64,000 nucleotides of DNA from positions 1 through 64,000 of IMG/VR virus record IMGVR_UViG_3300048597_000624, one strand, 5' to 3'. Below the pieces are notes generated by a model, which had not been told where the DNA came from, ran no database searches, and worked only from the letters and a program-made list of their open reading frames with translations. Below are positions 36,084-61,421 of the stretch, piece after piece; the first letter of the stretch is position 1; each line of letters begins with the position of its first letter. Source of the stretch: a virus. The position numbers and the translations under genes were made by a program.

Positions 36084-36150
36084 CCAACGAAAAAAGCCCG
36101 CCAGCAAGCCGATATTGGCTCGAAGGCGGGCCCGGTTGTTCCGACACCCA
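36084..36150 (-). promoter_or_regulatory. Attenuator element copy A (conserved hairpin overlapping terminator)
   Basis: TGGGTGTCGGAACAACCGGGCCCGC...GCGGGCTTTTTTCGTT. Confidence 0.85.
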
Positions 36151-36168
36151 TGTTGAGTTGTGCGGGGT

Positions 36169-36198
36169 ATTCTAGCGATCCCTGGCGGCCAGTGCCAA
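36169..36198 (-). promoter_or_regulatory. Sigma70-like promoter feeding attenuator A
   Basis: TTGGCA-N18-TAGAAT. Confidence 0.55.
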
Positions 36199-36267
36199 GG
36201 TTCTTGCTGACTTTCGGATTTGCCCAAATTAAATTAAACGCTGGATTCAGGCCCGGGAGCCCATGAA

Positions 36268-37437
36268 ATGTCCAACGAGTCCCCCACTGTCGACGCCGAC
36301 CTTCGTTTCTCGTTCCGCTGCCCGTCGTGCGGCGCCAAGTGCAAGAGCAAGGTCAAGCACGTCGGCAAACGCGTGGATTGCCCGAAGTGCGGGGCATCGA
36401 TCGCGGTGCCGAGTTACTCCGGAAGGGGAGAGCAGTTCGAAGATTTGGAAATGACGGATTTGCTCAAGCGGGAGCCCGGAAGGATCCAGCCGGACGCCCC
36501 GACGATCAAGGATTGGCAAGCCACTCCGTCGCAGTCCGGATCCGGACGGAGTGTGGAAGAAAGCCTGTTTGACGATCTGCCCAGCGCGGAGGAATCGCGA
36601 GTTCGGTTCGATGCGATCAGTCGCGATGACGACTCGGATGACGATCAGCCGAGTATTGATCTGACGATGAGGGCGAAGCCGGAGCGGCGAGATGGCCCGG
36701 CAGTTCCAACGTGGGCTCCCGGCACAGTTGCAATCATTGCCTGGATGTTCCTAACGACCGCGCACGCCGCATGGATTTCATGGAGCAATACTGAACTGCC
36801 AGCCCAGGTGTACACTGCCTTTACAAGTTCCATTGGCGCATCGAATCTGTACTGGGCGGTATTTCTCTCAATTCGCGCTTGGAGAGTTGCGAAGTTTTAT
36901 TCAACAATTTCTGGAGGCGCGCTGCCCGCGTTTCCGCAATTCATTCGCTACCTGATGGCTATCTCCACGTCATGGTTTGGGATCGGAGCGGTAAGCTTCC
37001 TCCTTACGGTCCCTTACGCCATTTTTTCCAATGAGAACCTTGGGATTGTGCTGGCTGCGATTGGAATGTATTGGGCTCTTTCTCTCGTGATGTGGCTTGC
37101 GACGATTACGGTGCTTGGTGTTGTGTATTTCATCACTAAACCGCCAGTAGTCTATGCAATGCCTGCTCCCAGTCTCGATCAAGAACGAACGACGGCAAAG
37201 TCCATTAGCCTTAGTGAAATTGCTGTTTTGTTTGGGCTCTTGGCGATATGCGCCGTCTGCGGAGCGGCAATTGGAGTTTCTGCACGCGCAATCTATCCGC
37301 TGTCGCCGGCCAACGTGGGGATTCAAGGTCGCTTTGACAGGCTACCTATCAGAGCGAACGGAGCCCAAGCCCAACAGAACCAGCAAATGTGGAAAGACAT
37401 GATTCGCGGTCTGGCAAACCAGAACCAGCAGAACTAG
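36268..37437 (+). CDS. Zn-ribbon plus multi-TM membrane protein (moron-like, opposite strand)
   Basis: CPSC...CPKC, acidic linker, about five hydrophobic helices. Confidence 0.8.
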   Translation: MSNESPTVDADLRFSFRCPSCGAKCKSKVKHVGKRVDCPKCGASIAVPSYSGRGEQFEDLEMTDLLKREPGRIQPDAPTIKDWQATPSQSGSGRSVEESLFDDLPSAEESRVRFDAISRDDDSDDDQPSIDLTMRAKPERRDGPAVPTWAPGTVAIIAWMFLTTAHAAWISWSNTELPAQVYTAFTSSIGASNLYWAVFLSIRAWRVAKFYSTISGGALPAFPQFIRYLMAISTSWFGIGAVSFLLTVPYAIFSNENLGIVLAAIGMYWALSLVMWLATITVLGVVYFITKPPVVYAMPAPSLDQERTTAKSISLSEIAVLFGLLAICAVCGAAIGVSARAIYPLSPANVGIQGRFDRLPIRANGAQAQQNQQMWKDMIRGLANQNQQN

Positions 37438-39125
37438 AGGATCCCGTCAATGAACGCCGATCCTGGAATCGTGTTGTCGTCAGCATTGGTGCTGTCGTAA
37501 GCCCGCGACCCCATGCGCAGTCTTTCGAGTCGCGACAATGATTTTGTCAGCGCGAATTTGTATTCAGCTTCAATGCGGTAAAGCAACTTTTTCACGTCGG
37601 CTGTGAGTTGCGGCGCGTGCGGGATGATGCTTACGTCCATCAGAACCGCCACGCCGGGCGCTTCGTTGTAATTCGCGAATGACGGTAGCTGCGGTGGTTC
37701 TCCTACCCGCTCCGCCTTGATCTTCACATGCCGATACGTAAGCCCGCCGCCTGGCTTTGTTAGCTGAACAACGAAGACATCATCGTCGCTGTCGCCGCCT
37801 CCAGCGATCGGCAGGGCGATGCGGTACGGATTGTGCTCGTATCGCCCAGACACTTCGTACACAGTGTAAATGGCTTGCTTGTGCTCTTCGCTGTATGGAC
37901 CCGCCTGCTTGGGTAAATCGCCGTAGGTGACTTGCGGCTCTGGCGCGTTTGATTCTTCGGGAACGTTCTCTGACTGTTCGGTGGCTTCGGTCTTGAAGAT
38001 CGAATGCTCGTCATTGCAAGGCGATTGCCAATACGAAACGAATAGTCCGATTGGAGATGCTTCTCCAGTAACGGGAGGGACTGGCGACCGAAAGCGGTTG
38101 TACTCGTCTATCGAGACAGGCTTGCCCATCATGCTCAATGGGTCGTTGATGTTGAAGGCAACTCCTTCTCCGGACTGATTGTGGAGAATTCGGACAACCA
38201 TTCCGACTCGATTTTCATGCAGATAGTCAACGATTGAGGCGTTGAGAATGAAATACTGATTGTTTCCCATTGCCGCTAGCGCCAGTTTGTTTTCGATAAC
38301 TTGAGCGCATGAGACAAGCAGCGCAGTCTTGCTTGCCGATGGTGGGCCTGTTAGCTCAATTTCAACTTCTCCGTGAGTGACAATTCCATCAGGCGAACTT
38401 GTGGTATGCCTTGCCGTCCACGACGTGGCACCACCCGGCGCGGCATACGGTATCTGGCGGTCAACGATCGTGTAGTCGATCGTAAGTCCAGCGGTGTCCA
38501 CGTTGAAGTTCATTGAATGCCGCTTAAAGCCTGGCTGTAATGGAGGAACGACCAGGTTGCGGAATGCGTGAGGTTCCATGTTGACCGTACTGACTTGAAG
38601 TCTCCCCGCGATTGTCCGCGTGCAGTACCAGTCTCCATCGTAGTCGTCGATGCTCGACCATCGGTTCGATAGAACTCCGCTAATGTTCGTCGCGTCTTCG
38701 CAGATCAGGCGACAAACCTCAATCGTAAATTCAATGCGGAGAATTCTTGCGCCGGCAGCGTGGGTGATCTTCACTCCAGACGGCTTGGGGCCGCTATTCA
38801 AATCCCACTTACTGCGCTCTTCCGAATCTGACGGAAGCGCCCGAAGGATTACCTCCTCGCCAATTTTGTACTCAAACTCCCGGCGCGGTTCATTCAAGCG
38901 ATCTTGAATCGCCCGAAAGTTATTCGCCATGTTTGTGTTTCCAGGAGAAGCCCCCAGGTAGGGAGAAAGAAACTCCGGGTGAACCAAACCGGACACGGTA
39001 ATACGGAAGCGATGATAGAGAAGATCCGTTCCGGAAGGGTCGTATATTGGTTCCTGGGAGAACTCCTTGGTCAGGACGTTTGTTAGGCCAATTCCGTTGT
39101 AGGTGACCTTCGTGTCGTCAGACAT
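37434..39125 (-). CDS. Putative tail protein
   Basis: 563 aa directly after tape-measure-position gene. Confidence 0.55.
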   Translation of the reverse strand: MSDDTKVTYNGIGLTNVLTKEFSQEPIYDPSGTDLLYHRFRITVSGLVHPEFLSPYLGASPGNTNMANNFRAIQDRLNEPRREFEYKIGEEVILRALPSDSEERSKWDLNSGPKPSGVKITHAAGARILRIEFTIEVCRLICEDATNISGVLSNRWSSIDDYDGDWYCTRTIAGRLQVSTVNMEPHAFRNLVVPPLQPGFKRHSMNFNVDTAGLTIDYTIVDRQIPYAAPGGATSWTARHTTSSPDGIVTHGEVEIELTGPPSASKTALLVSCAQVIENKLALAAMGNNQYFILNASIVDYLHENRVGMVVRILHNQSGEGVAFNINDPLSMMGKPVSIDEYNRFRSPVPPVTGEASPIGLFVSYWQSPCNDEHSIFKTEATEQSENVPEESNAPEPQVTYGDLPKQAGPYSEEHKQAIYTVYEVSGRYEHNPYRIALPIAGGGDSDDDVFVVQLTKPGGGLTYRHVKIKAERVGEPPQLPSFANYNEAPGVAVLMDVSIIPHAPQLTADVKKLLYRIEAEYKFALTKSLSRLERLRMGSRAYDSTNADDNTIPGSAFIDGIL

Positions 39126-39139
39126 CTCTCACTCTCTTC

Positions 39140-40336
39140 CTAGTCCCGTTCGTCTTGTCGTTCGCGCTGGTTCCGACCTTTCTGGCCATTCGGAGCTTGC
39201 CCCCACCGGACGGTATTAAACTTTCCATTCGCCATGTCGCGCAACGCTTGATTCCACACGCCGGTAGTCTTTGCATTTCCGTTCGCAATTCCTCGGTCAA
39301 TATTTTGAAGCAATTGCACAATCGGATTAAGTCCAAGCTCTGCAGTCTTGGTCTGCAACCATGCCCAAATTGCAACCAGCTTTGCGGCGATAGTGGCGAG
39401 AACGTTTAAAGTGTTTGCCAGTTGCTGCTGGAGAGGGTGCAGTTGAGTTCTCATGTCGTTGATGGCATCGGCCAACATCTTAGTTGATCGTTCAGTTCCG
39501 GATGCCATCTGGTATTGACGCTGCATGTCCGATCGTTCGAGTTCTGCGAAAGCTCTCGCGATTCCCCCGCTGTATCGCTTCAGGCCCTCCTGCGATCTGA
39601 GTTGCGTATCAGCAAATTGCTTGCTCGCCACACCAGCAGCAAGCAACGAGCCGGCCGCCGCGCTCCCGGCCGTAGCGAGAGTGGCCATCGCCATCGCTGA
39701 CTTTTCAATCCGCTCGTCTTGCTCCTTCCTCGCCCGCTCCGCATCCGCCGAATCCGCCTCATCGGCCATCCCGCCGCCGATGATGTCCCCATACTGCTCC
39801 TTGTAGCCCGCGCGACGCTCCGCCCTCTGAACATCCGTCAGCGGACTCGCGGGGGCACCGTCCGCAGCGGTCGCCACGCCTTGGGACCGCTGCCGTAGCG
39901 ATTGCTGGACAAGGTTGGCCAACCGCTGGAACGTGCTGCGATCGTTCTTGGCCGGCGCGTTCGGCTCGGATGGAGCCTGCGATCGAGGCTGCTGTGACGG
40001 CTGGGCGAACGACCGAAATCCAGTCTCGCGCCCCTCCGCAGGACGAATCCCGTACTCCCCGCTCGCCGACGGCGTGTACTTCCCCGTCTCGACTGGACGG
40101 ATGCCGTATTCACTCCCCGACCCCGGCGACAGGTACTGATTGACTTTGCGTCCCGCGCGAGCCGCCAAGTCTCCCAAGCCTTCGTTGCGAACTACCTGGG
40201 CGGTCTGAGCGACAACCGGGCGAGCGGCTGCCGCGGCTCGAGTGAGCAAGCCGGAACCGGCCCGGGCGGCAATGGGGGCGATCTTCGGAATAAGTCCGGT
40301 CGCCATCGAAGCCAGCAGTGCCAATGGGGCGCCCAT
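39140..40336 (-). CDS. Tape-measure-position protein, short (398 aa)
   Basis: Ala/Gln-rich helical protein immediately after the chaperone frameshift gene. Confidence 0.55.
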   Translation of the reverse strand: MGAPLALLASMATGLIPKIAPIAARAGSGLLTRAAAAARPVVAQTAQVVRNEGLGDLAARAGRKVNQYLSPGSGSEYGIRPVETGKYTPSASGEYGIRPAEGRETGFRSFAQPSQQPRSQAPSEPNAPAKNDRSTFQRLANLVQQSLRQRSQGVATAADGAPASPLTDVQRAERRAGYKEQYGDIIGGGMADEADSADAERARKEQDERIEKSAMAMATLATAGSAAAGSLLAAGVASKQFADTQLRSQEGLKRYSGGIARAFAELERSDMQRQYQMASGTERSTKMLADAINDMRTQLHPLQQQLANTLNVLATIAAKLVAIWAWLQTKTAELGLNPIVQLLQNIDRGIANGNAKTTGVWNQALRDMANGKFNTVRWGQAPNGQKGRNQRERQDERD

Positions 40337-40992
40337 TTACTGAACCCTCGTATCACGCGTCTCGTTCAGACGGGCATGAGTCTCCGCCATTGCGTAGAGC
40401 GCGGCTCCCTCGTCGTCCGATTCCGCCATGGCGCAGAACACAGCTTCGCTCAGCATGTCACTGCCATGCGACTTGAACGCCTCTACGATGCGCTGGCGGG
40501 CTCGGATTTCGGCTCGGCTTCGGTTGAGCCAGAATCCGACGACTCGTTCGTAGCCCCCTCCTGCGTCGTCTCCGTCAACTCCGCCGATGCCTCCTGGGAA
40601 GCATCCGCCGGCGACGTCAAAGCCGTAACAGACGGCGAGGTCAGAGTCTGGCTGGTACTTTTTTTTAGCCCCGCCAAGTACTCCATAAAGTCGACGAACA
40701 GTTGGACGGTTTCGCTTTCGGTCGCGCCATGCTGCGTACCGTCGGCGTCTTCCGTCCATTCCTTTAGACCGAAGATATCCCGCATGGCGACGATCAGGCG
40801 GCTCTGGGCTTCGAGGTCGCCGGCATCGATCAATGCCGGATCCGACGTCAGATTGAACGAGTTGTGCATCCCCAGCTTGCGGTGGGCAGCAATCGGATCG
40901 ATCGCGCGATTGATTTCTCCCGGCTTCTCTCCGTCGCTGTATCGAAAGATTTCCCGGGTTGGTTTGTTGTCCGTCATGGTCCCGCTGTACAT
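40337..40992 (-). CDS. Tail assembly chaperone pair (short form stops at 40483; -1 frameshift form ends at 40337)
   Basis: A8 run at 40659..40666 read CTA AAA AAA AGT; -1 frame is open to a TAA abutting the next ATG. Confidence 0.7.
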
Positions 40993-41019
40993 GGATAGCG
41001 CCTTTCCATCTCTTCAAAA

Positions 41020-41502
41020 CTAGGAAGTCACTGCGTTTCGAAGCACTCCCGAACCGTTCTTGTGGGCTTCGAACTCGCAGACGAACCGAGAATATTTGGT
41101 ACCCCGATTGCAGTTGATTGCTCCGCGCACAAACACCCGCGGGTAGTTTCGCGGAAGCAGCGTGGACGCGATCAGCAAGCGAATCGTCTTGCTGTCCTGG
41201 AACATGAGCGTGCCTGGAGTGCCAGGGGTGCCGGCCGTTCCGCCAGCCAGGCGAGCTTCCACCTTGGCGGCAACCGTAGAATCCCACTTGGTGAGCTCCA
41301 TGCGGATGCGGGCAATTTCCCCCAGGTACTGGACGTCGATCGGCGGGCCATCATCGCCGCCGTGCTGGTCGCCAGGGACGTCGAGGAAAAAGCCCTCTTC
41401 GTCGATGACGATGCCGTTGTCGGAGTAGCCGAGATCTTCCAGGCCGGCTCCAGCGTCGATACGGACCAGAGCCGGGCCGGGAACGATGACTGCAAGTGCC
41501 AT
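41020..41502 (-). CDS. Major tail tube protein
   Basis: LGYS...G, D-rich loop, 160 aa, between adaptor and chaperone. Confidence 0.7.
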   Translation of the reverse strand: MALAVIVPGPALVRIDAGAGLEDLGYSDNGIVIDEEGFFLDVPGDQHGGDDGPPIDVQYLGEIARIRMELTKWDSTVAAKVEARLAGGTAGTPGTPGTLMFQDSKTIRLLIASTLLPRNYPRVFVRGAINCNRGTKYSRFVCEFEAHKNGSGVLRNAVTS

Positions 41503-41520
41503 GGCTTAAATCCCTCTCGT

Positions 41521-42027
41521 TCAACCAGCCGACAGCGGCGACGGACGCCGCGCGGGGTAAAAGTTTCGGACGTTGTCGCGAAGTAAGTTCTGGTTCCGCA
41601 CCGCCGATATCGAGGGCGTCAGCGCCTTGGGCAGGGCCGCGTCCTGCTGCGGTTCGAGGTTGAAGACATTCCGCCCCCGGCGCAAATCCTCGAGGTGGGC
41701 CTCGGCACGATCCATCGCCGCGACTCGCGCTTCGCTGGCTCCATCCGGGCGCCGCTCCATGAGCATCCCCATGGCGACTTCGCAGGTGATGCGCTTCAGA
41801 TACGCCTGCGAGTTGTCGGTGAGGCTCGACAAGTCCGCGACCGTGTACCGCTTGCCGACCAGCAGCGCCGCTTCGATACGGCCGCTGGCGTCTTCGAGAA
41901 TCGCGAGCAGCCGATCGTCGGTTGCCAGGTCAACTTCCTCGACTCGCGTACCGTCCCCGACCAAGTCGCCGATCTCGCGACTATCGAACCGGACGATCAT
42001 GTCGGCGGGGTCGGCGTAAGAGGCCAT
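41521..42027 (-). CDS. Head-tail adaptor, Mu gp36/DUF1320-like (start re-called at MASYAD)
   Basis: YADPADM..RF, LEDASGRIEAAL...Y, AEAHLEDLRRG. Confidence 0.75.
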   Translation of the reverse strand: MASYADPADMIVRFDSREIGDLVGDGTRVEEVDLATDDRLLAILEDASGRIEAALLVGKRYTVADLSSLTDNSQAYLKRITCEVAMGMLMERRPDGASEARVAAMDRAEAHLEDLRRGRNVFNLEPQQDAALPKALTPSISAVRNQNLLRDNVRNFYPARRPSPLSAG

Positions 42028-42115
42028 ATCAACCAGCGAGTAAAAGAGAGAAGCTCTGGCGGGCGTGTTCGGCGCCACCCGCCAGAGCAAGCGAGCCAGC
42101 AAACATCAAGACGGA

Positions 42116-43165
42116 TCAGTCGCAGGCACCGGTGAACAAGAACCCAGTGACGGGAGCCGTCACGATGGTGTCGTAGTTCTCGGTGATGCGACCCTTGGTG
42201 CGGCGGTTGTCGGGGTCGTCCTTCGTCTCGATCGTCATCTCCTCTTTCATGAAGATGGTGATCGTCGAGAACGAGGGAGCGCCTTCCACACCAACCAGTC
42301 CGCCCGGTCGAGCGCACATGAACGGCGTTGTGTCAGGCAGCACGAAACCGCGGCTGGTGGTCGCACCCTTTTGCGTCGAAACGCGAACGGTCTTTTCGAC
42401 CACAAGCGGGAAGCCATACAGCTTGTCCGGGAGTCCGAACATCGAATTGCCGCCGGCCAACTCGCCGCGGATTTGCGGGAGAGCGTCCGGGCTGCCCTTG
42501 ATGTGGTCAACGATCTCTTGCGCGACCGCCAGCTTGCGGGCCAAGCCCGGGCTGATGACGACAACCAAATCGTTGATGTCGATCGCGGCCAGCGTGTCCT
42601 TGAGGATCAACTCGGCCGCGTGATTCAGCGACCGCTTGATCGACTGGGCCGCCGTGGTCGAGACGTCCCACTTGGTCGACACGCCGGTGATCGAACCGCC
42701 GGTCACAGCGCTCACGTGTGTCGAATCGTAGTTGCCGGAGGTCGTCGCAGCGGTGATCGCTCGCAACGTGCGGGCGGTCATCATCCGTTGGGCGTGGATC
42801 CGGCTGTGGGCCGCGATGATGTCCCACGTCGCCTGTTCGGACGTCAAGTAGCCGATATTGAACCCGGTCGCGATGCGTTTCGCAGCGTAGGCCAGGTATT
42901 CGTGCGACTCGGTGCCGTCGTTGAAATCCGGCGACTCGTTTCCGTCCGGCCATTGCAGGTCGGCCAGATTGGAGTTGACCAGGCGGCCAGCCTGTTCGAC
43001 CGTCATTTTCATGTAATAGCCGACCATCTTGTCGACTGGGACGATTTGGGCGTATCGATTGACCGCGAAATCCTTAACATTCCGCGAGAAATCGACGACC
43101 ATTTTTCCACTCGCTTCGTGCGAGGGGACGTAGGTGTTGTTTGCGCCTGGAAGTGTGGCTGCCAC
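42116..43165 (-). CDS. Major capsid protein
   Basis: 349 aa after decoration gene, ends GFLFTGA; GGAGA RBS before GTG. Confidence 0.8.
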   Translation of the reverse strand: MAATLPGANNTYVPSHEASGKMVVDFSRNVKDFAVNRYAQIVPVDKMVGYYMKMTVEQAGRLVNSNLADLQWPDGNESPDFNDGTESHEYLAYAAKRIATGFNIGYLTSEQATWDIIAAHSRIHAQRMMTARTLRAITAATTSGNYDSTHVSAVTGGSITGVSTKWDVSTTAAQSIKRSLNHAAELILKDTLAAIDINDLVVVISPGLARKLAVAQEIVDHIKGSPDALPQIRGELAGGNSMFGLPDKLYGFPLVVEKTVRVSTQKGATTSRGFVLPDTTPFMCARPGGLVGVEGAPSFSTITIFMKEEMTIETKDDPDNRRTKGRITENYDTIVTAPVTGFLFTGACD

Positions 43166-43319: not shown

Positions 43320-43739
43320 TTACGACAAGGCAGGGATGAACTTGAAGATCACGATTTGCACGAGGATCTTGTTGCCCGATGCCCCGGCCGACAGTGCGAT
43401 CGCACCGACGTGCTGCATGGTCGTGCCGGTGGTTGCCGCAGCAACGCCCTTGCCGTCCGCATCGGACTTGAGGTAGTCGCCGGCCACGACGTCGCCACCC
43501 AGTTCGAGCGGGCAAACGTCACCCAGGAAGTAACCCTTGAGCGCTTCGCCGGAAGCGGCCGCGTCAGCACCTGCCCCGGGAATCGGAGCGTCCTGCGCGG
43601 CTTCGCTCGAAATGCCGATGACCGGTTCGTTCGCATCGCTCTCCAGCAGCGTGTGATTCGCCGAAGTCGAATGCTTCATGAACCGGGAAGGATTGATCGT
43701 TCCGCCGGCGAGGAACGCAGGAGCAGCAGCACGAGCCAT
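43320..43739 (-). CDS. Capsid decoration/cement protein (DUF2190-like)
   Basis: IGIS, GGDVVAGDYLKSDADGKGV, VGAIAL. Confidence 0.75.
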   Translation of the reverse strand: MARAAAPAFLAGGTINPSRFMKHSTSANHTLLESDANEPVIGISSEAAQDAPIPGAGADAAASGEALKGYFLGDVCPLELGGDVVAGDYLKSDADGKGVAAATTGTTMQHVGAIALSAGASGNKILVQIVIFKFIPALS

Positions 43740-43756
43740 GATTTTGTCCTTTGCCT

Positions 43757-43815
43757 AACGAAAAAAGCCCGCGACTCGTTTACTGAGGTCGCGGGCCCGG
43801 TTGTTCCGACACCCA
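43757..43815 (-). promoter_or_regulatory. Attenuator element copy B
   Basis: TGGGTGTCGGAACAACCGGGCCCGCGAC...GTCGCGGGCTTTTTTCGTT. Confidence 0.85.
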
Positions 43816-43858: not shown

Positions 43859-45232
43859 TCAGGCTTTCGCGAGGGCGGCCTCGTAGGAAATGCCTTCGGA
43901 TTGAGCGATGTTGACCGCCCGCTTCGCGCGAGCCTCGGCGTCGGCATCGCTTTGCCCCGTCTTGATCGGGGGTCCGGAGTAAACCCGACGTTCGACCGGG
44001 ATGCGTTGATACCGCTCCTTGATTCGCGCTTCGTGCTTCTCGAATTGATCGTCGCTCAGTTCGATCGTCTCTTCGAGCTCGGCGGAGACGTCGAGCATGT
44101 GAGTCTTGGCCAGTTCGTCCAATCGCGAGTAGCGAACGCTGCGACGGTTCTCGCGTTCGAGCGCCGCGACACGCTGTTCGAGCACCTTGTTTTCACCGTC
44201 TTTCATGGCGTACTTCCTTTTCAAATCGACGTTTTCGCGGCGGTATTTCTCGGCCACGGTCGCGCTCGCCTTGCCATCGACGTCATCTTCGACGGAGCCG
44301 GCGGCTCGCTCGTAGAACTCTTTGGACTTGGGGTCATCCCCTTCGCACATCGCTCGCTTGAGCTTGGTGCGGTCTTCGTCGCCCAGGATGCCCAGGAAGT
44401 CCTTGGCGCCCTTGTCGTCGCCGTCTTCCTGATATTTGCGGAAGGCTTCGACGTTGGTGTCGTCGTCGGCAAGTGGAGCGGCACCCAGCCCAGCCGCATC
44501 CGCTTGGGGAACGGTCGGCGCGGGGCCAGTCTCTTCGGCCATCTTCGAAGCCGCCCACTGAAAGACGTCGGTTTGTTGAATTGCGTTCACAACCTGCTGG
44601 ATGTCTTCCGGCGTGAGAGCCATTTTGCGCTTCTCCTGAGTGGTGCCATCGGTCGGTACGAAGACGTTCGCACCACCAGGCGCGACGGCGGCATATTTGC
44701 GGACTTGGCGTCCCTTTTCGAGACGTCGGTAGTGCAGGCCGGGCGGCAACCCCAGGTCGAGGCGGGGCGTCTCGCCGGCCAGTAGTGAAATCGGGTCGAT
44801 GAATCGGTCGTGCAAGTTCTCTTCCGCCCAGACTTCGACGCTTCGGCGGGGATACTTGCGGATGACGTCGGCGCGATCCTTGAAGATTCGGAAGCGGGCG
44901 AAGATTGCCGCGCGAGGTCGTTTCCGGCCAAGGCGCCCCAGTTTGAACGGGCCAGCAAACCCAACCACTTCAGGATCTCGATCCTCTTCACCGGGATTGG
45001 GAGTGTGCCGCAGAATGATTGGCACATAATCGCCGGTGTCTTCGATCCGCAGGTTGTTGTTGTGGCACATCGATTCGAGCACCGGCAGGTCGTACACCTC
45101 GTCTTCGCCCTCGAAAGCCGTGACGTGCTCGGCGAAAACCGCGACGTCGTCCAGCACGATGAATTGCGATTCGTCCAGCGGTGCGCTGGAGAAGTCAATT
45201 TCGGCCGGGGCTTCGAGAGTGGCTGTTGCCAT
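43859..45232 (-). CDS. Prohead protease / scaffold fusion (start re-called at MATATLE)
   Basis: PIILRH, VVGF, YPRRSVE, ISLLAGETP assemblin-like motifs; acidic coiled-coil C-terminus. Confidence 0.75.
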   Translation of the reverse strand: MATATLEAPAEIDFSSAPLDESQFIVLDDVAVFAEHVTAFEGEDEVYDLPVLESMCHNNNLRIEDTGDYVPIILRHTPNPGEEDRDPEVVGFAGPFKLGRLGRKRPRAAIFARFRIFKDRADVIRKYPRRSVEVWAEENLHDRFIDPISLLAGETPRLDLGLPPGLHYRRLEKGRQVRKYAAVAPGGANVFVPTDGTTQEKRKMALTPEDIQQVVNAIQQTDVFQWAASKMAEETGPAPTVPQADAAGLGAAPLADDDTNVEAFRKYQEDGDDKGAKDFLGILGDEDRTKLKRAMCEGDDPKSKEFYERAAGSVEDDVDGKASATVAEKYRRENVDLKRKYAMKDGENKVLEQRVAALERENRRSVRYSRLDELAKTHMLDVSAELEETIELSDDQFEKHEARIKERYQRIPVERRVYSGPPIKTGQSDADAEARAKRAVNIAQSEGISYEAALAKA

Positions 45233-45241
45233 GCGAGGTAA

Positions 45242-45302
45242 CCAACAAAAAAAGGCCCGCGATTCCATTTTGGAGTCGCGGGCCCGGTTGTTCCGACACC
45301 CA
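45242..45302 (-). promoter_or_regulatory. Attenuator element copy C
   Basis: TGGGTGTCGGAACAACCGGGCCCGCGA...TCGCGGGCCTTTTTTTGTT. Confidence 0.85.
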
Positions 45303-45314
45303 ATCGCTTTGTTC

Positions 45315-45542
45315 TTACTTCAACGATTCTGAGTTGGTTGCGTGGACGACTTCGATCAGCCCGTTGTCCACGCACAGCTCGACGTTGACGCGGCCATAAT
45401 AGCCACGTCTTAAAACGTCCGTCAATAGATTCTTCAACCGCGAGTTGGCTAACGCCAGCATCCTCTGGTTCTTCTCGAAGTCCACCGTAGGGACTTCAGG
45501 CGACGTCGTTGTACCACTCAAATCAGAATTCTCCTCGGTCAA
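45315..45542 (-). CDS. Small DUF2292/YezD-like protein, candidate antiterminator
   Basis: LRRGYYGRVNVELCVDNGLIEVV...ESLK; stop is 13 nt upstream of attenuator C. Confidence 0.55.
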   Translation of the reverse strand: MTEENSDLSGTTTSPEVPTVDFEKNQRMLALANSRLKNLLTDVLRRGYYGRVNVELCVDNGLIEVVHATNSESLK

Positions 45543-45568
45543 AAGCCGTCCCGGCCGGCCGAGTTTAC

Positions 45569-45748
45569 TTAGGATGTTTTGCGGTTCTTCCGCTTCACTG
45601 TGCTCGCGTTGACCTTGGCTGCCTGCGCCTTGGAAGCCTTGGACTTGCGGCGGTACGTCTCTTTCTCGCTGGGCTTGGTCATTACCGCATCGCCCATGAA
45701 GCCTGGTCCACGGATCGGCGTATCGAAGATCTCAGGTAGATCGGCCAT
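45569..45748 (-). CDS. 59-aa basic protein missing from ORF track
   Basis: MADLPEIFDTPIRGPGFMGDAVMTKPSEKETYRRKSKASKAQAAKVNASTVKRKNRKTS; TGATG coupling to portal stop. Confidence 0.6.
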   Translation of the reverse strand: MADLPEIFDTPIRGPGFMGDAVMTKPSEKETYRRKSKASKAQAAKVNASTVKRKNRKTS

Positions 45749-54709: not shown

Positions 54710-56196
54710 CGCGAATGCCTCTTGAACTGCAATTGCTTCCGCTGGGGAAGCGGCGCCTTCTTCGCAACTGGCACTTCTCCGCCTACTCGCTGCCGATCAC
54801 TATGCAATCCATATCGCAGCGCGTCAACGCAGTCATCGTTGCGCTTGAGCGGAGTGGGGGCCGCGACCTGCGGATTTATGCCGCGCCCGTTCGACCGACG
54901 CCAGCGGTAAGTTCGCATTTCCTTGGCCAGGTGCGGGCAGTTGCCGCGGTGGATCAGCAGCCGCGGCCGGTTGGTCATCGAATTGAGTTTCAGCATCGAC
55001 CGGACTGTCTCGATCCCCTTGTACACGTTGTTGTTCGCCGGCGAGACCGGGATCCCGTGGGCGGCAAAAAGGTTGATTAGGTCTGGCCGAGACGGATCCG
55101 CATAGGTCGAACCGTAGCGGGCGTTGTTCGTCGGCCAGGGGTGCCGATCCTTGATCTCGGCAATGTGGTCCAGCGCGGTCAGGTGCTGCGAGTTGTTCCA
55201 GTATTCGTCGTAGACGTGGTAGTCGCCCAGCCCATCGCGGAATAGCCACAGCGTTACGAACGGGTGTTCCGCCGACGCGCCCCAGTCGATCGAGCGGAAA
55301 TGCCAGGCACCGGGCGGGATCTCGATGTCGTCGACGAGGTGGATGCGGGGGTTGAAAGTCTGGTAGATCGAGCCTTCGTAGCTGGCAAATGCTCCCGTCT
55401 TGCGGGTTTCCAGCATTTCATCGGAGACCGACGCGAAGAACGTGTCGTACCATTCGTCCGACAGGTTCCCGCGATTCCGCTCGGTGTTGAGGCGGAAGAA
55501 CGACCAACCCTCGGGCGGATCGTCGAAAATCTCTTCAATCGGAGCCGACAACTCCGGATCGATCGGCGTAAACTCGCCCCACACGCCACCGGGGTACATG
55601 CAATCTCGGCAGCCGCGCAGCACTTCGAGGAAGATCTCGAACGGGAACTGCTCTGAGAACCAAGCGCCGCCGATCGAACTAGCCTGCATCTTGTCGCGGC
55701 CCTGCTCGTAGCTCTTGAACTCGACGATCCAGTTCTTGCCCGGGCGCCCGTGCCATGGCTTGAGCGGAACGGCGTAAGGCCAGCCGCGATTGACTCGGTA
55801 CCACTGCACGCGCTTCCAGTCGATCACGTCCTTGGGCAGGTAGCGCGAGAGCTTTTCAAACCAGCACACGCCGCAGGACTGATCGTAGGTGTTGGAGATC
55901 ACCCAGAACGGCGTATCGCGGCGTGGCGGAGGCTGGTCGAAGAGCAAGAACTTCGCGCACTTGTAGGCGCCGGCTTCGGTCTTGCCCGAGGCGTTGCCGC
56001 CGATCGCCATGGAGACGACCGACTTGGAATGTACGAACCCTTCCTGCTCGTCGTAATCGGCCGGGTTGTCGGGCCGCGGCTGGAAGGTGTACAGCGCTTG
56101 CTGGTGGAAGCGGTTGAATTCGCCGATTAGGTCATCGTCGCCGCTCGAAAGAACGACGTCCCAATCGTCGGCAGTGAAGGGTGAGGCGATGGGCAT
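54706..56196 (-). CDS. terL: Terminase large subunit
   Basis: GGNASGKT Walker A, FKSYEQG, SIDWG, YADPS, DDCVDALRYG nuclease motifs. Confidence 0.92.
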   Translation of the reverse strand: MPIASPFTADDWDVVLSSGDDDLIGEFNRFHQQALYTFQPRPDNPADYDEQEGFVHSKSVVSMAIGGNASGKTEAGAYKCAKFLLFDQPPPRRDTPFWVISNTYDQSCGVCWFEKLSRYLPKDVIDWKRVQWYRVNRGWPYAVPLKPWHGRPGKNWIVEFKSYEQGRDKMQASSIGGAWFSEQFPFEIFLEVLRGCRDCMYPGGVWGEFTPIDPELSAPIEEIFDDPPEGWSFFRLNTERNRGNLSDEWYDTFFASVSDEMLETRKTGAFASYEGSIYQTFNPRIHLVDDIEIPPGAWHFRSIDWGASAEHPFVTLWLFRDGLGDYHVYDEYWNNSQHLTALDHIAEIKDRHPWPTNNARYGSTYADPSRPDLINLFAAHGIPVSPANNNVYKGIETVRSMLKLNSMTNRPRLLIHRGNCPHLAKEMRTYRWRRSNGRGINPQVAAPTPLKRNDDCVDALRYGLHSDRQRVGGEVPVAKKAPLPQRKQLQFKRHSR

Positions 56197-56558
56197 CAGC
56201 AGTAAGCCGTAGACGTCGGACGTTTCAGGGTCGGCGGTACGCTCGGGTCATCCATCCAAGCGCGGAACTCACGAGTCTCGCCCTGGCCGTCGCACTCCGG
56301 GCAGCTTGCTCGCTTCGAGAACAACCAGCCGAGAATGCCGCGAGCGGTCGGGAGCCAGCCGCGGCCGTAGCAGCGCGAGCACGTGCGATCTGTCGGGCAG
56401 TTTGGATAGTCCATCGTGCGTTGATCGCCAGAAGACTTGACCATGGCTCGCCTCAGGTGCCGCGGAACCGGAACGGACGAACCAATCCGCTGACCCCAGA
56501 CGCCAGTACGAACGACGTCCGGTTTTGTTGGCATCGGAGGTGGTCCGTTGCGGCTCAT
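56196..56558 (-). CDS. DnaJ-type zinc-finger-like small protein
   Basis: CSRCYGRG and CPECDGQG. Confidence 0.6.
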   Translation of the reverse strand: MSRNGPPPMPTKPDVVRTGVWGQRIGSSVPVPRHLRRAMVKSSGDQRTMDYPNCPTDRTCSRCYGRGWLPTARGILGWLFSKRASCPECDGQGETREFRAWMDDPSVPPTLKRPTSTAYC

Positions 56559-56582
56559 GTCAGCCTTTCACTGAATCACTAG

Positions 56583-56619
56583 AAAAGCCCCGGGAGGTGG
56601 TTTCGGATCCTCCCGGGGC
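56583..56619 (-). terminator. Intrinsic terminator lacking the conserved leader
   Basis: GCCCCGGGAGG/CCTCCCGGGGC plus TTTTCT. Confidence 0.7.
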
Positions 56620-56638
56620 GCGTAGCAACAACAAGCCG

Positions 56639-57562
56639 CTACGCCGCTGATTCCTGCGTAGCCTTGGCCTTTTTCTTCGCCTTCGACGTCTCGCCCGATT
56701 GACGCCTCAGCATCCGCGTGACGAACTTGGTTTGGATCCCGAGATACTCGGCGATCTGCTTGGGCTCGTAGCCGCGCTGCGTCATCAACGCGACCCGTTC
56801 TTCGTCGCCGAGTTGATACTCCTCGTCATTCAGCGGGGGAGCATCCTCCGCGGAATCGAGCGGTCCGCCGTGCTCGTCATCGTCGATCGCATCCTCATCG
56901 AGATCCTCATCGTCCGGGCCGGCTTCAACCTCCGGCGCGTCGCTCTCGACCACGCCCGACGCTTCCGCCCCAGGACCGGCCATCGTCCGCATCACGCGAC
57001 TGCTGCGAGCCTTGGGAGCCTTGGCGTTGGCGGCCCGATTCGCGTTTCGCTCCAGCTTGGCTTCGAGCTCGCGCCGCTCGTCCAGGAACTGCTGGTCGCG
57101 CGTGCACAGCGTGCCAGGCTTGATGATCGACCCAGGATTTGCGATTTCTTTGTCGATGTCATCGTAGTGGATCGGCCACATGGCACTGATCTGGAGCTTA
57201 CTGACGCCGGCCTTGGCGAGCTCGGCGACGGACGGGATCGGCTCGAGCGGCTTGGGCGGGTTGAACTGCTCTCGCAATCGGAGGATGTTTTCCCACGCGC
57301 GCCAGAATCCCTCGTGCGGATTGGGATTCTTCTGGTTGTCGCGATTCTCGAATTTTTCCCACTCTTCGCTCATGCGAACCATCGCGTCGCGCATCGGCAT
57401 GCACGCCGGCGGCAGCTCCGCGTCGAACCATTTCTGGAGCATCGTTTCGAGCGACTCATAGAACTCCACGCTGGGGTATTGCGCGGGAGAGATCACGTAG
57501 GCCTCGTGAACCTCCTTGAACCCGTCGATCTGATCGAGCAGCATTTTCACTTGAGCGTTCAT
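56639..57562 (-). CDS. Hypothetical protein with acidic linker and C-terminal HTH
   Basis: GYEPKQIAEYLGIQTKFVTRML. Confidence 0.65.
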   Translation of the reverse strand: MNAQVKMLLDQIDGFKEVHEAYVISPAQYPSVEFYESLETMLQKWFDAELPPACMPMRDAMVRMSEEWEKFENRDNQKNPNPHEGFWRAWENILRLREQFNPPKPLEPIPSVAELAKAGVSKLQISAMWPIHYDDIDKEIANPGSIIKPGTLCTRDQQFLDERRELEAKLERNANRAANAKAPKARSSRVMRTMAGPGAEASGVVESDAPEVEAGPDDEDLDEDAIDDDEHGGPLDSAEDAPPLNDEEYQLGDEERVALMTQRGYEPKQIAEYLGIQTKFVTRMLRRQSGETSKAKKKAKATQESAA

Positions 57563-58194
57563 GACTGGCCCTTTCCTGGTTTGCCGTTGCCGTTGTTAGG
57601 TGAATGGCCGTTGCGGCTGGCATTCCGCGGCGGGCCGATGTTCGGTCGAGCTTGGGACGATTGAGGCTTGGACTGGGACGATTCGGGTTGCTGGGGCTCT
57701 TGCGGCTTCCTGTCGCGGAACGAATCGATCTTCTCCCGCAATTCCCGCAAAGCTTCGGACGGCGACTTGATGTCATCCGTCAAATGCGTCAGCCCCACGT
57801 TGATGTTCTCGGATCGATCGCTTTGGCCAAGATGCTGCTGGCCAAGCCACTTGAGCATGGAGGGATTGCCCTCGCGCGCGGCCTTGAATTGCAACCGCCG
57901 CAGGGACATTTTGCCGGCTTCCTGTCCGTCCTTGATGACCTGGGCGAACCGGCGCTGCAGGGTGTCTTCCGAGCAATCGAACACCGCCGCCATTTCCTTG
58001 AGCGTGCATTGAATCTTCGCCATTTCGAAGACTTGCTTCTCACTGATCTCCTTGCGCGGCCGACCGCCCGGATGCTTGGGCTTCTCGCCATCCGCTTCCG
58101 CCGGCGGAGTCGCGTTGCTCGCCTGCGAAGCCTTGGAAGCTTTCGAATTTGCTGGTTTCTTTTTTGCTGGTTTCTTCTTCGCCATGATCGTCAC
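57559..58194 (-). CDS. Putative terminase small subunit
   Basis: GRPRKEI, CTLKEMAAVFDCSEDTL HTH, MLKWLGQQHLGQSD. Confidence 0.7.
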   Translation of the reverse strand: MTIMAKKKPAKKKPANSKASKASQASNATPPAEADGEKPKHPGGRPRKEISEKQVFEMAKIQCTLKEMAAVFDCSEDTLQRRFAQVIKDGQEAGKMSLRRLQFKAAREGNPSMLKWLGQQHLGQSDRSENINVGLTHLTDDIKSPSEALRELREKIDSFRDRKPQEPQQPESSQSKPQSSQARPNIGPPRNASRNGHSPNNGNGKPGKGQS

Positions 58195-59415
58195 TTACGC
58201 CGCGATATACCGCACGCCGTTCCCTGGGGTGGGACTCATCGCATAGGTTCGCGCCGGGTCGGCCGGGTCGCCGTGCGTGGAGTGGATAATCGCCCGTTCG
58301 CCCGGCCCGAGTTCGTAGCCGCTGGATGCGTCGACGTCAGCATCTCCGATGTACACGACGTCCTCGTTCGTCGCGTCGGCGATCACTTCCAAGCGATCGT
58401 CACACGGAACCGACTGGCCGTTGATCGACAATGGGAACGCCTGCAAGTCTCGCGAGGCACCGATCCGCTGGTTGCGAGCAAAGTTGTGCAGGAACCGCCG
58501 GAAGTCGAGCTTGAGCGTGTCGGCTCCTCCAGTGGGCAGGTCGCACACTTCGCAGATATCCGATTCGCTGGGGCGCGCGTACTCAATGTCGTCGAGGTAA
58601 TCCGCCAGCATGTGGTTGACTGTTTCGAGCTCGGTCGTGGATATCGGCTTGTTCGGGTGAATCTCGTCTTCCTGGAACGCGAAGGTCGAGTCGTCTCCAC
58701 CCTCGTGCATCTGGATGACCTGGCCCCCCAGCGTGATCGTGTCGCTGGCCAGCAGTGTGGCGTAGAGCGAATCGAAATCGATCATCGGAATGCGACGTCG
58801 CTTGCACTCCAGCCGGATGCGCTCATTCAGGCGGTGGATCGCCGCATCGACCAGCAGCCGACCCGACGCATTGGGGAACAGTCCCTGCACGTAAGGCGAC
58901 TTCGAGTAGCTGATGCAGTTGCCGATGATCGGATAGCCCGTGCCGTAGCCGAGGTAATCATCAACCCCGCCGAACAGCGCCCGGAAGGCTCCATCGAGGT
59001 AATCATCGATCGTCGATTGTGCCCAGCGGCCGAGGTAAATCGACTCATACGCGACGTTCTGCAGCGGGCTGAAATCGTTCTCCAGGATGCGGAAGATCGC
59101 GACGTTCGACGTTCCCGCTTCGAGCAGAGCGCCGGCCCCCACGTCCAACCCGAGCACCGTGCGATAAATCTGATCGCCAAACAGTCCATCCACGCGATAG
59201 GCCGAAGTGACAGTCGCGCCGTGCTTGCCGGCGTAGACGTTCGCGGTCGCGCCGGCAACGGCCAGGTTGTACGGCCGGTTCGAGCCGTCGAGTTCGCCGT
59301 ACCAGTCCGGGTAATACTCGATGCCCAGGTCGTACCAGTGCTTGGCGTAGACTGGAGCGGCCGCCGCGGTGAGTGAGTTGCCGACTCCACAAGCTTTGCC
59401 GACTAATGCTGGCAT
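58195..59415 (-). CDS. SGNH/GDSL-like hydrolase with C-terminal small beta domain (start re-called at MPALVG)
   Basis: GNSLT, NLAVAGA, END, DEIHPN blocks. Confidence 0.7.
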   Translation of the reverse strand: MPALVGKACGVGNSLTAAAAPVYAKHWYDLGIEYYPDWYGELDGSNRPYNLAVAGATANVYAGKHGATVTSAYRVDGLFGDQIYRTVLGLDVGAGALLEAGTSNVAIFRILENDFSPLQNVAYESIYLGRWAQSTIDDYLDGAFRALFGGVDDYLGYGTGYPIIGNCISYSKSPYVQGLFPNASGRLLVDAAIHRLNERIRLECKRRRIPMIDFDSLYATLLASDTITLGGQVIQMHEGGDDSTFAFQEDEIHPNKPISTTELETVNHMLADYLDDIEYARPSESDICEVCDLPTGGADTLKLDFRRFLHNFARNQRIGASRDLQAFPLSINGQSVPCDDRLEVIADATNEDVVYIGDADVDASSGYELGPGERAIIHSTHGDPADPARTYAMSPTPGNGVRYIAA

Positions 59416-59419
59416 GGGA

Positions 59420-60586
59420 TCACAGGCCTCCCAGCGAGCCTTGGTCGTAGGCGAAGGCCACCACGTCGCCCACCACTCCCGAGCCGAACGTGAGGATCGC
59501 ACAGTTGTGGTTCGACTCGTAGCCGAGCGTGCCGGGATCCACTTCGCCCGAGAAGGCTACCGTCGGCACGCCCGTCTTGGTGGTGCGCGTCGTGACGAGA
59601 TACTTCGTCCCGTTCATGCGAACCTGCACGTAGCGGGTGGAGCCAGCAGTCCAGACGCCAGCTTGCGTGTTGAGGATCGTCCCGGGGGTGCCGGCGACGA
59701 CCGGACGCAGGTTGAGATTGCCCGTCGTCAACTCGCGCTCCAACAGCAGGCCGGTCGTTCCGGCGCCGTCGAGCCGAAATCCTAAAAACTCATAGCCGCC
59801 GGTGAGCGGGTTGGAGGCGGTGACCTTGAAGTCGATCACGGTATCCGCTTCACCCAAATCGAACTGAGTTCCCGACGAGAGATTGCCCGAGTTGGCGTAG
59901 AGTTCGGCGATCGTCACGCCAGCAATGGGGATCTTCCAGTTGTCGAACGAGCCGACCGCGCTGTCGTTGGCCACGGCGGAATAGAGCGTGGCGTCGGCGT
60001 TGGAGAACTCACGCAGCAAAAGCTTGTAGGTCGAAGAGAATCCGCCCCCCTTCGCGAGCATCCATGAGCCAGCGGCCCCCAGCACGATCGCAAAGCGGTA
60101 GTCATTGCCGGTGGCGATGGAGCCGACGTTGACGTTCGAGCCAGCCAGTCGAGCTTGCAGCGTGCCGGCGGACCCTCGCAGGCCTCCGCGCGGAGAGTTG
60201 TTGATCGTGGTCGAGTTCCACCAGCCCACGTACCAGTTGCCGGTTGTAGAGAGATTCAGGTCGACCGCCATTGCCAGTCCAGCGGTACGAGTTTGCGAGG
60301 TGGAAAAGTACGCGGCCAGGTCGGCGGTTGAGGCGGACGCCTGCGCGGTGAACGCGAGCCGACTCGATGCGATCGCCCAAGTGCCGTCGGCCTGAGTGAG
60401 AACCAGAGCACCTGGCCCGGGCTCCGCGGTGCGCGGGGTCGCGACTGGCGAGGCGTCGTCCGTGGTGAACTGATCGAACAGGATGTTGGTTTCAGGCGGC
60501 ACGAACGGTTCGCCGGCCGGGCTGGAGAAATACTCGCGCCGACCGCCACCGGATTTGGTCGAGCCTGCCGAACGAAAATAACCCAT
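59420..60586 (-). CDS. Beta-rich putative virion/receptor-binding protein
   Basis: Thr/Gly/Ser-rich, lectin-like composition. Confidence 0.55.
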   Translation of the reverse strand: MGYFRSAGSTKSGGGRREYFSSPAGEPFVPPETNILFDQFTTDDASPVATPRTAEPGPGALVLTQADGTWAIASSRLAFTAQASASTADLAAYFSTSQTRTAGLAMAVDLNLSTTGNWYVGWWNSTTINNSPRGGLRGSAGTLQARLAGSNVNVGSIATGNDYRFAIVLGAAGSWMLAKGGGFSSTYKLLLREFSNADATLYSAVANDSAVGSFDNWKIPIAGVTIAELYANSGNLSSGTQFDLGEADTVIDFKVTASNPLTGGYEFLGFRLDGAGTTGLLLERELTTGNLNLRPVVAGTPGTILNTQAGVWTAGSTRYVQVRMNGTKYLVTTRTTKTGVPTVAFSGEVDPGTLGYESNHNCAILTFGSGVVGDVVAFAYDQGSLGGL

Positions 60587-60610
60587 CAGGGCACCTCAGC
60601 GCCTCAGTCG

Positions 60611-60889
60611 TCAGCGAACGATGTAGCACACGCCCTGGCTGCCCGTAGAGGCGAACAAGTAAATCTCGGCGGGGTTGGCGAGGTTGCCGTGTACCGACTT
60701 GACGAACACCGATTCTCCGGCGGCGATGAAGACGCCAGTGCCAGCGTTGACGTCGGGACCGCCGACCCAAACCAAATCGTCATTGTCGACGAGCGCCTTG
60801 ATGTCCACCCCATCGACGGCGAGTGCGGAGGGCCCAAGGGCGACCGCTTCGTCCTCGATCTCGAGTTTTTGGCCAGTGACGAGAGCCAT
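60611..60889 (-). CDS. 92-aa beta-domain protein, paralog of the SGNH C-terminal domain
   Basis: NDDLVWVG...G...GE...SVHG..A.PA..Y...GV.YI shared; AAGGAG RBS. Confidence 0.7.
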   Translation of the reverse strand: MALVTGQKLEIEDEAVALGPSALAVDGVDIKALVDNDDLVWVGGPDVNAGTGVFIAAGESVFVKSVHGNLANPAEIYLFASTGSQGVCYIVR

Positions 60890-60893
60890 GTGA

Positions 60894-61289
60894 TCACCGC
60901 TCCTTGTCGGCGGGTTTCTCGGAAGAATCAGGAGATTCGAGCTTCGGCGGCTCCGTGATGATCACCGTGCCCATGCCGATGATCTTGACCGTCTCGCCCG
61001 TCTCAGAGTTGACGAAGGCCGTGTCGGTTCCGCCCATGCCCGAAGCGTGCTTGATGATCTTCGAGGCGTACCAGACGGTTTTGGAGCCGACAGGCATCAC
61101 GAGCAGCACGTGCTTGTCAGTTGGGTTGACGCGCTGGGGCTGTGGGTTGCGTCGATGCTGAGGCGGGATGTCGATCGCATGGGCGGCGCTGTCGATCGTC
61201 CGTCCCCCAGCGAGCACTGCCCACAAGATCAGGCAGGCGGCAACCGCGGCGACCATCTCACGCGACACCAGCTTCGTGATTCGATCCAT
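60894..61289 (-). CDS. Membrane-anchored hypothetical protein, first gene after attenuator D (start re-called at MDRITK)
   Basis: N-terminal TM helix; longer ORF call would run through the terminator. Confidence 0.6.
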   Translation of the reverse strand: MDRITKLVSREMVAAVAACLILWAVLAGGRTIDSAAHAIDIPPQHRRNPQPQRVNPTDKHVLLVMPVGSKTVWYASKIIKHASGMGGTDTAFVNSETGETVKIIGMGTVIITEPPKLESPDSSEKPADKER

Positions 61290-61297
61290 GCAACCCA

Positions 61298-61367
61298 CCA
61301 ACGAAAAAAGCCCGCAGGATGCTTCGCCGTGAGGCGGCACGCTGCGGGCTCGAGGTTTTCGATACCC
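61298..61367 (-). promoter_or_regulatory. Attenuator element copy D (covarying variant)
   Basis: GGGTATCGAAAACCTCGAGCCCGCAG...CTGCGGGCTTTTTTCGTTGG. Confidence 0.8.
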
Positions 61368-61391
61368 GTTCGGTTGTTTGTTCGGGAGGTC

Positions 61392-61421
61392 AGGATAGGC
61401 GCGAGGCGGCGGCGAAGTCAA
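61392..61421 (-). promoter_or_regulatory. Candidate late promoter feeding attenuator D
   Basis: TTGACT-N18-TATCCT. Confidence 0.6.

Follow-up and report, generated by a model that had tools for sequence, protein, structure and literature searches.

Control of late genes by the N and Q proteins of phage lambda is textbook material, and for the phages of Planctomycetota, as for most metagenomic phages, late control is not known. We analysed a window of 64,000 nucleotides (nt), bases 1-64000 of the 85,224-bp IMG/VR provirus record IMGVR_UViG_3300048597_000624 (a Planctomycete prophage; contig code G000), in which four copies of a small bulged hairpin, here called P1, each share an arm with a terminator-like hairpin ahead of late genes. 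The regulatory logic of such an arrangement is known and the parts are new. An earlier reading of the same DNA, made from its letters alone (the sequence-only reading), had proposed that the four copies act as an RNA switch for antitermination and had likened them to the ribonucleic antiterminator (RAT) sites of BglG and SacY.

The likeness to the RAT sites, which BglG, SacY and LicT recognize in bacterial sugar operons, holds for the logic. In both cases a hairpin in the leader shares nucleotides with the 5' arm of an intrinsic terminator, a protein stabilizing the hairpin would block that terminator locally, and there is one site per terminator. Membership of the RAT family did not stand: the hairpin described here is shorter, with a single bulge, has no Rfam match and lies in a late-gene context with 4-6 sites per genome, and the candidate protein is predicted to be an unrelated helix plus beta-hairpin of about 60-75 amino acids (aa). 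The RNA-binding domain CAT_RBD (PF03123) gave no match at E ≤ 0.1 in five phage records (G000, G006, G007, G010 and G011), with controls matched in 5/14 genomes. No PRD-domain protein turned up in Pfam scans of 30 open reading frames (ORFs), in which no search was aimed at PRD, and the phage context makes control by a phosphotransferase system unlikely. Proteins with an ANTAR domain (AmiR/NasR/EutV) likewise bind leader hairpins in competition with a terminator; their sites are two tandem hexaloop hairpins, whereas here a single hairpin carries a loop of 5-7 nt, and ANTAR (PF03861) had no match in the same five records.

Action of the N protein is processive and needs boxA and Nus factors. The locus shares with lambda N/nut and P22-type N a small phage protein together with a small 5-nt-loop hairpin in transcribed leaders, and a regulator gene, here a candidate, upstream of the terminators that it would open; nut, however, lies apart from the terminators, whereas here the overlap is invariant and a site stands before each terminator. 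The lambdoid Q and Q21-like factors, among them BrrG of the Bartonella gene transfer agent (bioRxiv 10.1101/2024.11.20.624540), resemble it in having a constitutive-looking late promoter with a terminator close behind and late genes that need antitermination. Q factors in general load on promoter DNA and act processively, whereas here the feature that is conserved and covaries is an RNA hairpin in which U:G pairs are frequent. Copies B and C, moreover, come after the stop codons of upstream genes, with no promoter-like site directly before the hairpin. A literature search returned no description of the motif, nor of DUF2292 proteins as antiterminators. The 'Rhodopirellula-1' motif, which is listed without an Rfam number as cis-regulatory in Proteobacteria and Planctomycetes by Weinberg 2010 (PMC2864571), could be a precedent, and it is that listing alone which is considered here.

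The 25-nt motif TGGGTGTCGGAACAACCGGGCCCGC is present in the window as three exact matches (copies A, B and C), all on the minus strand and where the sequence-only reading had placed them; copy D is a 24-nt variant on the same strand (61344-61367). A window search with up to 3 mismatches gave no further match, and 100 shuffles gave 0. The whole record contains exactly four copies, every one on the reverse strand, with 0 control matches. The inner stem UCGG/CCGG has become UCGA/UCGA in copy D, so that, as pointed out earlier, a G:C pair is replaced by A:U and a U:G pair by U:A with pairing kept.

Each copy, read on the minus strand, runs into GCCCGC...GCGGGC followed by a run of six or seven T and (C)GTTGG, and the terminator interior is unlike from copy to copy, as had been noticed. 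A G+C-rich hairpin of 7-9 perfect base pairs (-19 to -28 kcal/mol) directly followed by the U tract is found at all four copies, as is typical of intrinsic terminators. When the whole record was scanned for terminators (perfect stem ≥ 6, T ≥ 5), 7 terminator-like sites were obtained, six of them on the gene (minus) strand, and the four motif-bearing sites were the strongest on that strand. Termination at the four U tracts would thus be expected from these features. The start codon of the next gene lies 14-30 nt past the T run in all four cases, and because no promoter fits into this space, the capsid gene and other late genes would be expressible only through read-through.

P1 consists of an outer helix of 3-4 bp, one bulged purine, an inner helix of 3-5 bp and a loop rich in A, with AACAA the commonest form. 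When viral contigs were scanned with a pattern, variants were recovered in four other contigs. In 38 loci that encode relatives of the capsid protein, sense-strand terminators were preceded by a hairpin of the same shape and different sequence, for instance GGU-A-UUGG-AACAA-CCAA-GCC, GCU-A-UCGA-AACAC-UCGA-GGC and GG-UA-CUCAU-...-AUGAG-CC. A first covariance model, built on the hairpin alone from 26 seeds and searched over 664 kb, returned 31 matches at E ≤ 0.16, all on the late-gene strand. The five non-seed matches correspond to four distinct sites (L020 duplicates L019); all four run into an overlapping hairpin, two with a U tract. With a second model, searched over both strands of 46 capsid-related loci (662 kb), 24/24 matches at E ≤ 2 lay on the late-gene strand. 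The covariance model that had been suggested as a check thus recovered the family from related and unrelated phage contigs, on the late-gene strand only.

Across 33 model matches, 92.0% of cells were paired and compensatory changes were seen in 6/8 pairs (41 cells). The covariation score was 0.540 versus 0.245 ± 0.023 for shuffled alignments (0/500 reached 0.540) and at most 0.129 when the partners were slid. The register GGGU/GCCC with a single bulged purine, which is the fold originally drawn, proved the better one: its closing pair, U10:R27, forms in 32/33 rows, compared with 21/33 for the alternative register. An independent check used a 20-nt pattern for P1 only, which matched at least 120 metagenome stretches; 80 loci were examined. 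Among 64 unique matches away from contig ends, the inner stem was complementary in 39/39 of those with an overlapping terminator, and non-complementary in 9 of the 25 without one (Fisher p = 7e-5). Judged by these alignments, the P1 hairpin with its bulged purine is a conserved, covarying RNA structure.

A run of four T follows P1 within 80 nt in 31/33 model matches, and in 30/31 of these the 3' arm of P1 has at least three of its four nt paired in the terminator fold as well; the window copies share GCCC in this way, in line with the competition between the two folds suggested before. The terminator partners of the shared arm lie 0-7 nt from the U tract, and the arm changes together with both its partners, giving 14 distinct triples (e.g. 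CGCU/GGCG/CGCC and AGCU/GGCU/AGCC). Since the P1 3' arm is the base of the terminator, the two structures would exclude each other. P1 energies range from -3.8 to -8.7 kcal/mol in the family (for copies A and D, folded alone with 2-3 flanking nt, see Table 1) and family terminators from -15.3 to -35.9 kcal/mol; because the terminators are far more stable, the RNA alone should terminate.

The sequence behind the U tract is conserved too. CGUU follows in 13/33 family members and GUUU or GUUG in 5 more (in the window at 36084-36089, 43757-43760 and 61300-61303), a conservation by sequence and not by pairing with P1. Pairing of this tail (UUUUUUCGUU) with the P1 loop, which RNAfold draws for copies C and D, was considered and rejected: the CGUU tail persists in copies whose inner stems differ, and the pairing therefore lacks covariation. 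We also discarded a promoter of the extracytoplasmic function (ECF) type (GGAAC ... CGTT), for which the spacing exceeds 40 nt and GGAAC is, by eye, missing from copy D, and a DNA operator or hairpin-promoter, given the U:G pair at columns 10:27 in 24/33 rows and an orientation fixed relative to the genes.

The whole related contigs carry 1-6 copies each, all on the gene strand, with six in G006 and two in G009. The complete 92.9-kb phage G007 has in common with the present phage by blastn only the element itself (76% identity over 83 nt), which lies between a portal gene and a protease/capsid-like gene, and tblastx gave no real protein match between the two. Genes downstream of the metagenome copies are phage genes: portal, large terminase, scaffold, homologues of the tail and head-module proteins of the present phage, and, in five cases, phrog_29592. 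The units occupy conserved places ahead of late-gene blocks. Among GTDB genomes, relatives of the capsid protein occur in Planctomycetota metagenome-assembled genomes (MAGs) and in one MAG labelled Gammaproteobacteria. In 401 Planctomycetota genomes the P1 pattern (≤ 1 mismatch) had 5 matches versus 1 for the control, and only the exact match among the five has a promoter-like site, a terminator and a start codon; five host MAGs were also searched with the covariance model, 150 candidates per genome being scored. Scattering of the kind seen with repetitive extragenic palindromic (REP) elements, which the sequence-only reading had named as an outcome that would speak against a switch, is excluded by the single real copy in the 401 genomes and by the confinement of the phage-locus matches to one strand.

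Comparison with Rfam 15, also suggested at the outset, gave no family for the elements. At gathering scores the window contains only two transfer RNA (tRNA) genes, and in E-value mode the best scores in 12 kb around the four copies were 14-22 bits, against gathering scores of 38-380, with none on the fold of the elements. The motif is, on the evidence of its sequences, a conserved and widespread phage family uncatalogued in Rfam 15, and it would function in attenuation.

In G006, TTTGACCC-N17/18-TAnnnT is found 34-42 nt before 4/6 copies, and the octamer TTTGACCC occurs 7 times in that contig versus 1.8 expected; it looks like the -35 element of a phage promoter set. The six gene-strand occurrences (minus strand; 62167, 54397, 45623, 40390, 37086 and 16422) include four that lead to hairpin-terminator leaders and two that do not. 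In the window, sigma70-like promoter sites had been claimed 20-25 nt before copies A and D. The sites are there, ending 19 and 24 nt before the respective hairpins, but such sites are no more numerous per region than in shuffled sequence; as consensus matches, they are suggestive by their position alone.

The ORF at 45315-45542, which the sequence-only reading had singled out, turned out to belong to the one protein family that travels with the hairpin. First screens by tblastn and blastp yielded no non-structural protein common to the phages and missed this family, which was revealed by pairwise comparison and hidden Markov models (HMMs). The ORFs just upstream of copies in G000, G008, G011 and G012 encode proteins of 69-77 aa with weak mutual similarity (E 7e-6, 2e-5). 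HMMs built from the small ORFs found members in G007, L027, L051, L056 and L087 and, more weakly, in G010 and L029-L032, so that the small ORF is present in 6/8 whole phage contigs (G000 and G006-G012). In G007 it lies upstream of the single copy, despite the lack of any protein in common with the present phage by tblastx.

To quantify this synteny, we turned to the metagenome instances that had been retrieved with nothing but the RNA pattern; 35 of them had a confirmed terminator and 200 nt or more of upstream sequence. In 25/35 the same-strand ORF whose end lies no more than 100 nt before P1 is a family member; 20 of these were detected at E < 0.05 against the 35 sequences, and all 25 have an aromatic-Gly...Gly core. 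When the HMM was run against all six-frame ORFs of the metagenome loci, 19/24 matches shared the strand of P1 and lay no more than 75 nt upstream of it. From its stop codon to P1 there are 5-98 nt, mostly about 20-30 nt, in the case of the small ORF. In L123 the pair of ORF and P1 precedes a portal gene instead of following one, which argues that their adjacency is more than inherited head-module order.

PF10055 (DUF2292) is the only Pfam family matched by more than one member (8/32, best E 1.3e-6). DUF2292, YezD and OscA proteins share with the family a small size and the aromatic-Gly ... Gly core; OscA (NF033785) itself matched 1/32 members (E 0.0085) and is described, in the account of the sulfate-transporter cluster in which it lies (PMC2996968), as a small protein of unknown function. 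The window protein has no match to PF10055 at E ≤ 1 and is tied to the matching members via the family HMM only, through which it can be provisionally assigned to a DUF2292/YezD-like family. Its AF2 model (mean pLDDT 79.8) has a disordered N-terminus, a helix at residues 22-43 and a beta-hairpin, and the Atlas offered only viral hypothetical clusters and a weak DUF2292 lead. The sequencing runs in which the locus occurs are contigs, probably of DNA, from relatives mostly 90-99% identical. In one such contig, from run X4 (pieces 90-99% identical), window positions 45303-46594 are swapped for 697 other letters; the swap removes the 75-aa ORF together with the last part of the portal fusion gene, and its joint falls exactly at the 5' edge of copy C.

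We propose that the four elements are conditional terminators, or attenuators, in the leaders of late blocks. The RNA by itself would fold into the terminator, the more stable structure, and transcripts from the sigma70-like promoters or from upstream genes would stop 14-30 nt before the next start codon. A factor acting in trans would bind P1 and keep its outer helix closed, so that the bottom pairs of the terminator near the U tract are lost and RNA polymerase reads on. An intrinsic terminator whose stem is shortened and separated from the U tract should not terminate, and loss of the bottom 3-4 pairs would leave such a stem. The most likely factor would be the 75-aa protein, which could be made from the terminated transcript, accumulate, and then open copy C and the other copies; its accumulation would act as a timer for the packaging, head and tail genes. 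To this reading as a whole, a factor-dependent local switch between antiterminator and terminator by which each late block is gated, the DUF2292-like protein being the likely factor and a feed-forward timer the logic, we assign a probability of roughly 0.55.

Several observations weigh against it. Two copies of P1 upstream of a capsid gene, L012 5014-5046 and L019 9878-9910, have no run of four T after the overlapping hairpin, and a third site, L056 9944-9976, appears similar by eye (13.4 bits, E 0.63). In L056 the 3' arm of the overlapping hairpin covers the capsid start codon, an arrangement that hints at a translational version of the switch. G006 and G009, despite six and two copies, have no detectable homologue of the small ORF on contigs that are 68% and 53% complete, and in G010 and L027 the small ORF has no element after it. 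Another gene lies upstream in 10/35 metagenome instances, as it does for A, B and D in the window; extra copies would be expected to look like this, and they add no support. The 75-aa protein showed no significant resemblance to a known RNA-binding fold (Foldseek best E 0.7, VIA best Z 4.2), and from reading its sequence by eye, not from a computed charge, it is not basic. The covariation alignment of 33 matches was itself fitted to the model, which favours the structure, a bias that the P1-only metagenome pattern avoids.

P1 might instead be a loading site for processive antitermination, similar to nut or put, at which the hairpin recruits a factor to RNA polymerase or acts on it directly; the modified polymerase would then ignore the next and possibly later terminators, the overlap being a by-product of compactness. 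The small hairpin with its 5-nt purine-rich loop is reminiscent of boxB, many copies are located 3-25 nt downstream of a promoter-like -10 element in the manner of nut, put and Q-type sites, and a small protein without a recognisable RNA-binding fold could bind polymerase instead. Yet P1 overlaps the terminator by 2-4 nt in every confirmed case and is never spaced away from it, both partners of the common arm covary with the arm, and a fresh site for every terminator, 4-6 per genome, would be needless for a processive complex, which makes this explanation unlikely. The same covariation between the P1 5' arm and the terminator base is left unexplained if the terminators are constitutive leaky insulators that set transcript ratios, P1 being a stabilizing, processing or translation-related element of the 5' untranslated region and the small ORF simply a syntenic head gene. 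Intergenic terminators that tune expression are common in phages, the ribosome-binding region comes right after the U tract with its CGUU tail (13/33), and portal and protease genes usually flank the small ORF, so module ancestry could account for part of the synteny. Such insulators would, however, place strong terminators (-15 to -36 kcal/mol, T6-7) right before the genes needed in the greatest amount, and the ORF stays adjacent to P1 when the downstream gene is a different one (portal, phrog_29592 or the protease-position homologue); we regard this possibility as quite improbable.

That the small ORF commonly ends so close to P1, 13 nt before it in the window, might also mean that the element serves this ORF itself, as an autoregulatory or translation-coupled 3' end of its mRNA, with the other copies secondary. 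No small ORF precedes A, B, D or the four promoter-proximal copies of G006, though, and the spacing is too variable for a fixed ribosome footprint, so we give this idea little credence. The least credible proposal is that the terminated transcripts of the promoter-proximal copies, about 60-80 nt long, are trans-acting small RNAs sharing a 5' hairpin. Their layout of promoter, hairpin and terminator with A/C-rich stretches and a U tail would suit it, and a leader terminated at a late promoter is presented as acting as a small RNA in one report (PMC7547250), but copies B and C are internal to operons, where they come after stop codons, and stems that vary within one phage while the shape is kept argue against a common antisense seed. 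A further candidate factor, phage CsrA, has homologues in 5/8 whole phage contigs; GGA is missing from most P1 loops, and it was set aside. The CsrA homologue of the provirus record lies outside the window (84169-84324, minus strand; PF02599, E 4e-26), the others being at G006 30273-30575, G008 55470-55685, G009 58106-58249 and G010 74660-74869, and a number of leaders do contain GGA motifs in the stretch from the U tract to the start codon.

The positions of the elements within the provirus are summarized in Table 1. Replication and methylase genes at 62-85 kb lie upstream of copy D. Copy D is followed by a block with the small and large terminase genes and the portal fusion gene, then by the 75-aa ORF and copy C, a 457-aa ORF, copy B, a scaffold-like 139-aa ORF with the major capsid gene (42116-43165) after it, copy A and a tail-like ORF. 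The 457-aa head-module ORF behind copy C has no family match, and the label 'protease/scaffold' given to it earlier is at most tentative for this window. When more than 30 ORFs of the record were searched against Pfam and PHROGs, all matches were to replication, methylase or structural families. The portal fusion, a 1484-aa ORF at 45748-50202 (minus strand), joins a portal domain (phrog_113, E 9e-31) to a NUDIX hydrolase domain (phrog_1198, E 5.5e-17) and is much extended at the C-terminus. A 389-aa ORF without a clear family (36268-37437, plus strand) breaks the series of late genes on the minus strand, a short way upstream of where copy A has its promoter-like site. The two tRNA genes found with Rfam are at 17519-17589 (plus strand, 76.7 bits) and 27494-27569 (minus strand, 47 bits), the latter inside the late-gene run of the prophage.

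Table 1. Features of the hairpin-terminator elements and the associated small ORF (window coordinates)
Feature	Position	Strand	Details
Promoter-like site 5' of copy D, TTGACT-18-TATCCT, sigma70-like	61392..61421	-	Consensus match only, 9/12
Copy D hairpin P1, GGGU-A-UCGA-AAACC-UCGA-GCCC	61344..61368	-	27.8 bits; alone -10.8 kcal/mol
Copy D putative intrinsic terminator	61304..61349	-	Stem 61310-61349, GCCC common with P1; U tract 61304-61309; ATG of 131-aa ORF at 61289
75-aa DUF2292/YezD-like small ORF, candidate trans factor	45315..45542	-	Stop codon 13 nt ahead of the copy C hairpin
Copy C hairpin P1, GGGU-G-UCGG-AACAA-CCGG-GCCC	45278..45302	-	31.4 bits
Copy C putative terminator	45247..45284	-	Stem 45254-45284; U tract 45247-45253; ATG of 457-aa head-module ORF at 45232
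Copy B hairpin P1	43791..43815	-	33.7 bits
Copy B putative terminator	43761..43796	-	Stem 43767-43796; U tract 43761-43766; ATG of scaffold-like 139-aa ORF at 43739
Promoter-like site 5' of copy A, TTGGCA-18-TAGAAT, sigma70-like	36169..36198	-	Consensus match only, 10/12
Copy A hairpin P1	36126..36150	-	29.7 bits; alone -9.9 kcal/mol
Copy A putative terminator	36090..36131	-	Stem 36096-36131; U tract 36090-36095; ATG of tail-like 537-aa ORF at 36059

Beyond this provirus, the analysis points to a system with two components, an RNA (about 25 nt) and a protein (about 60-75 aa), which many unrelated phages have ahead of their packaging, head and tail genes. We tentatively suggest, at somewhat less than even odds, that small DUF2292/YezD-like proteins are a new class of RNA-binding transcription antiterminators whose cognate site is a bulged hairpin sharing its 3' arm with an intrinsic terminator. 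The module, with its extra copies, may then serve as a master late-gene timer in many unrelated phages, and the bacterial proteins YezD and OscA may control downstream operons alike. If true, this would be the first function for DUF2292. If confirmed, the system would provide a new protein-RNA antitermination pair, a portable genetic switch and a marker for the annotation of late operons in uncultured phages.

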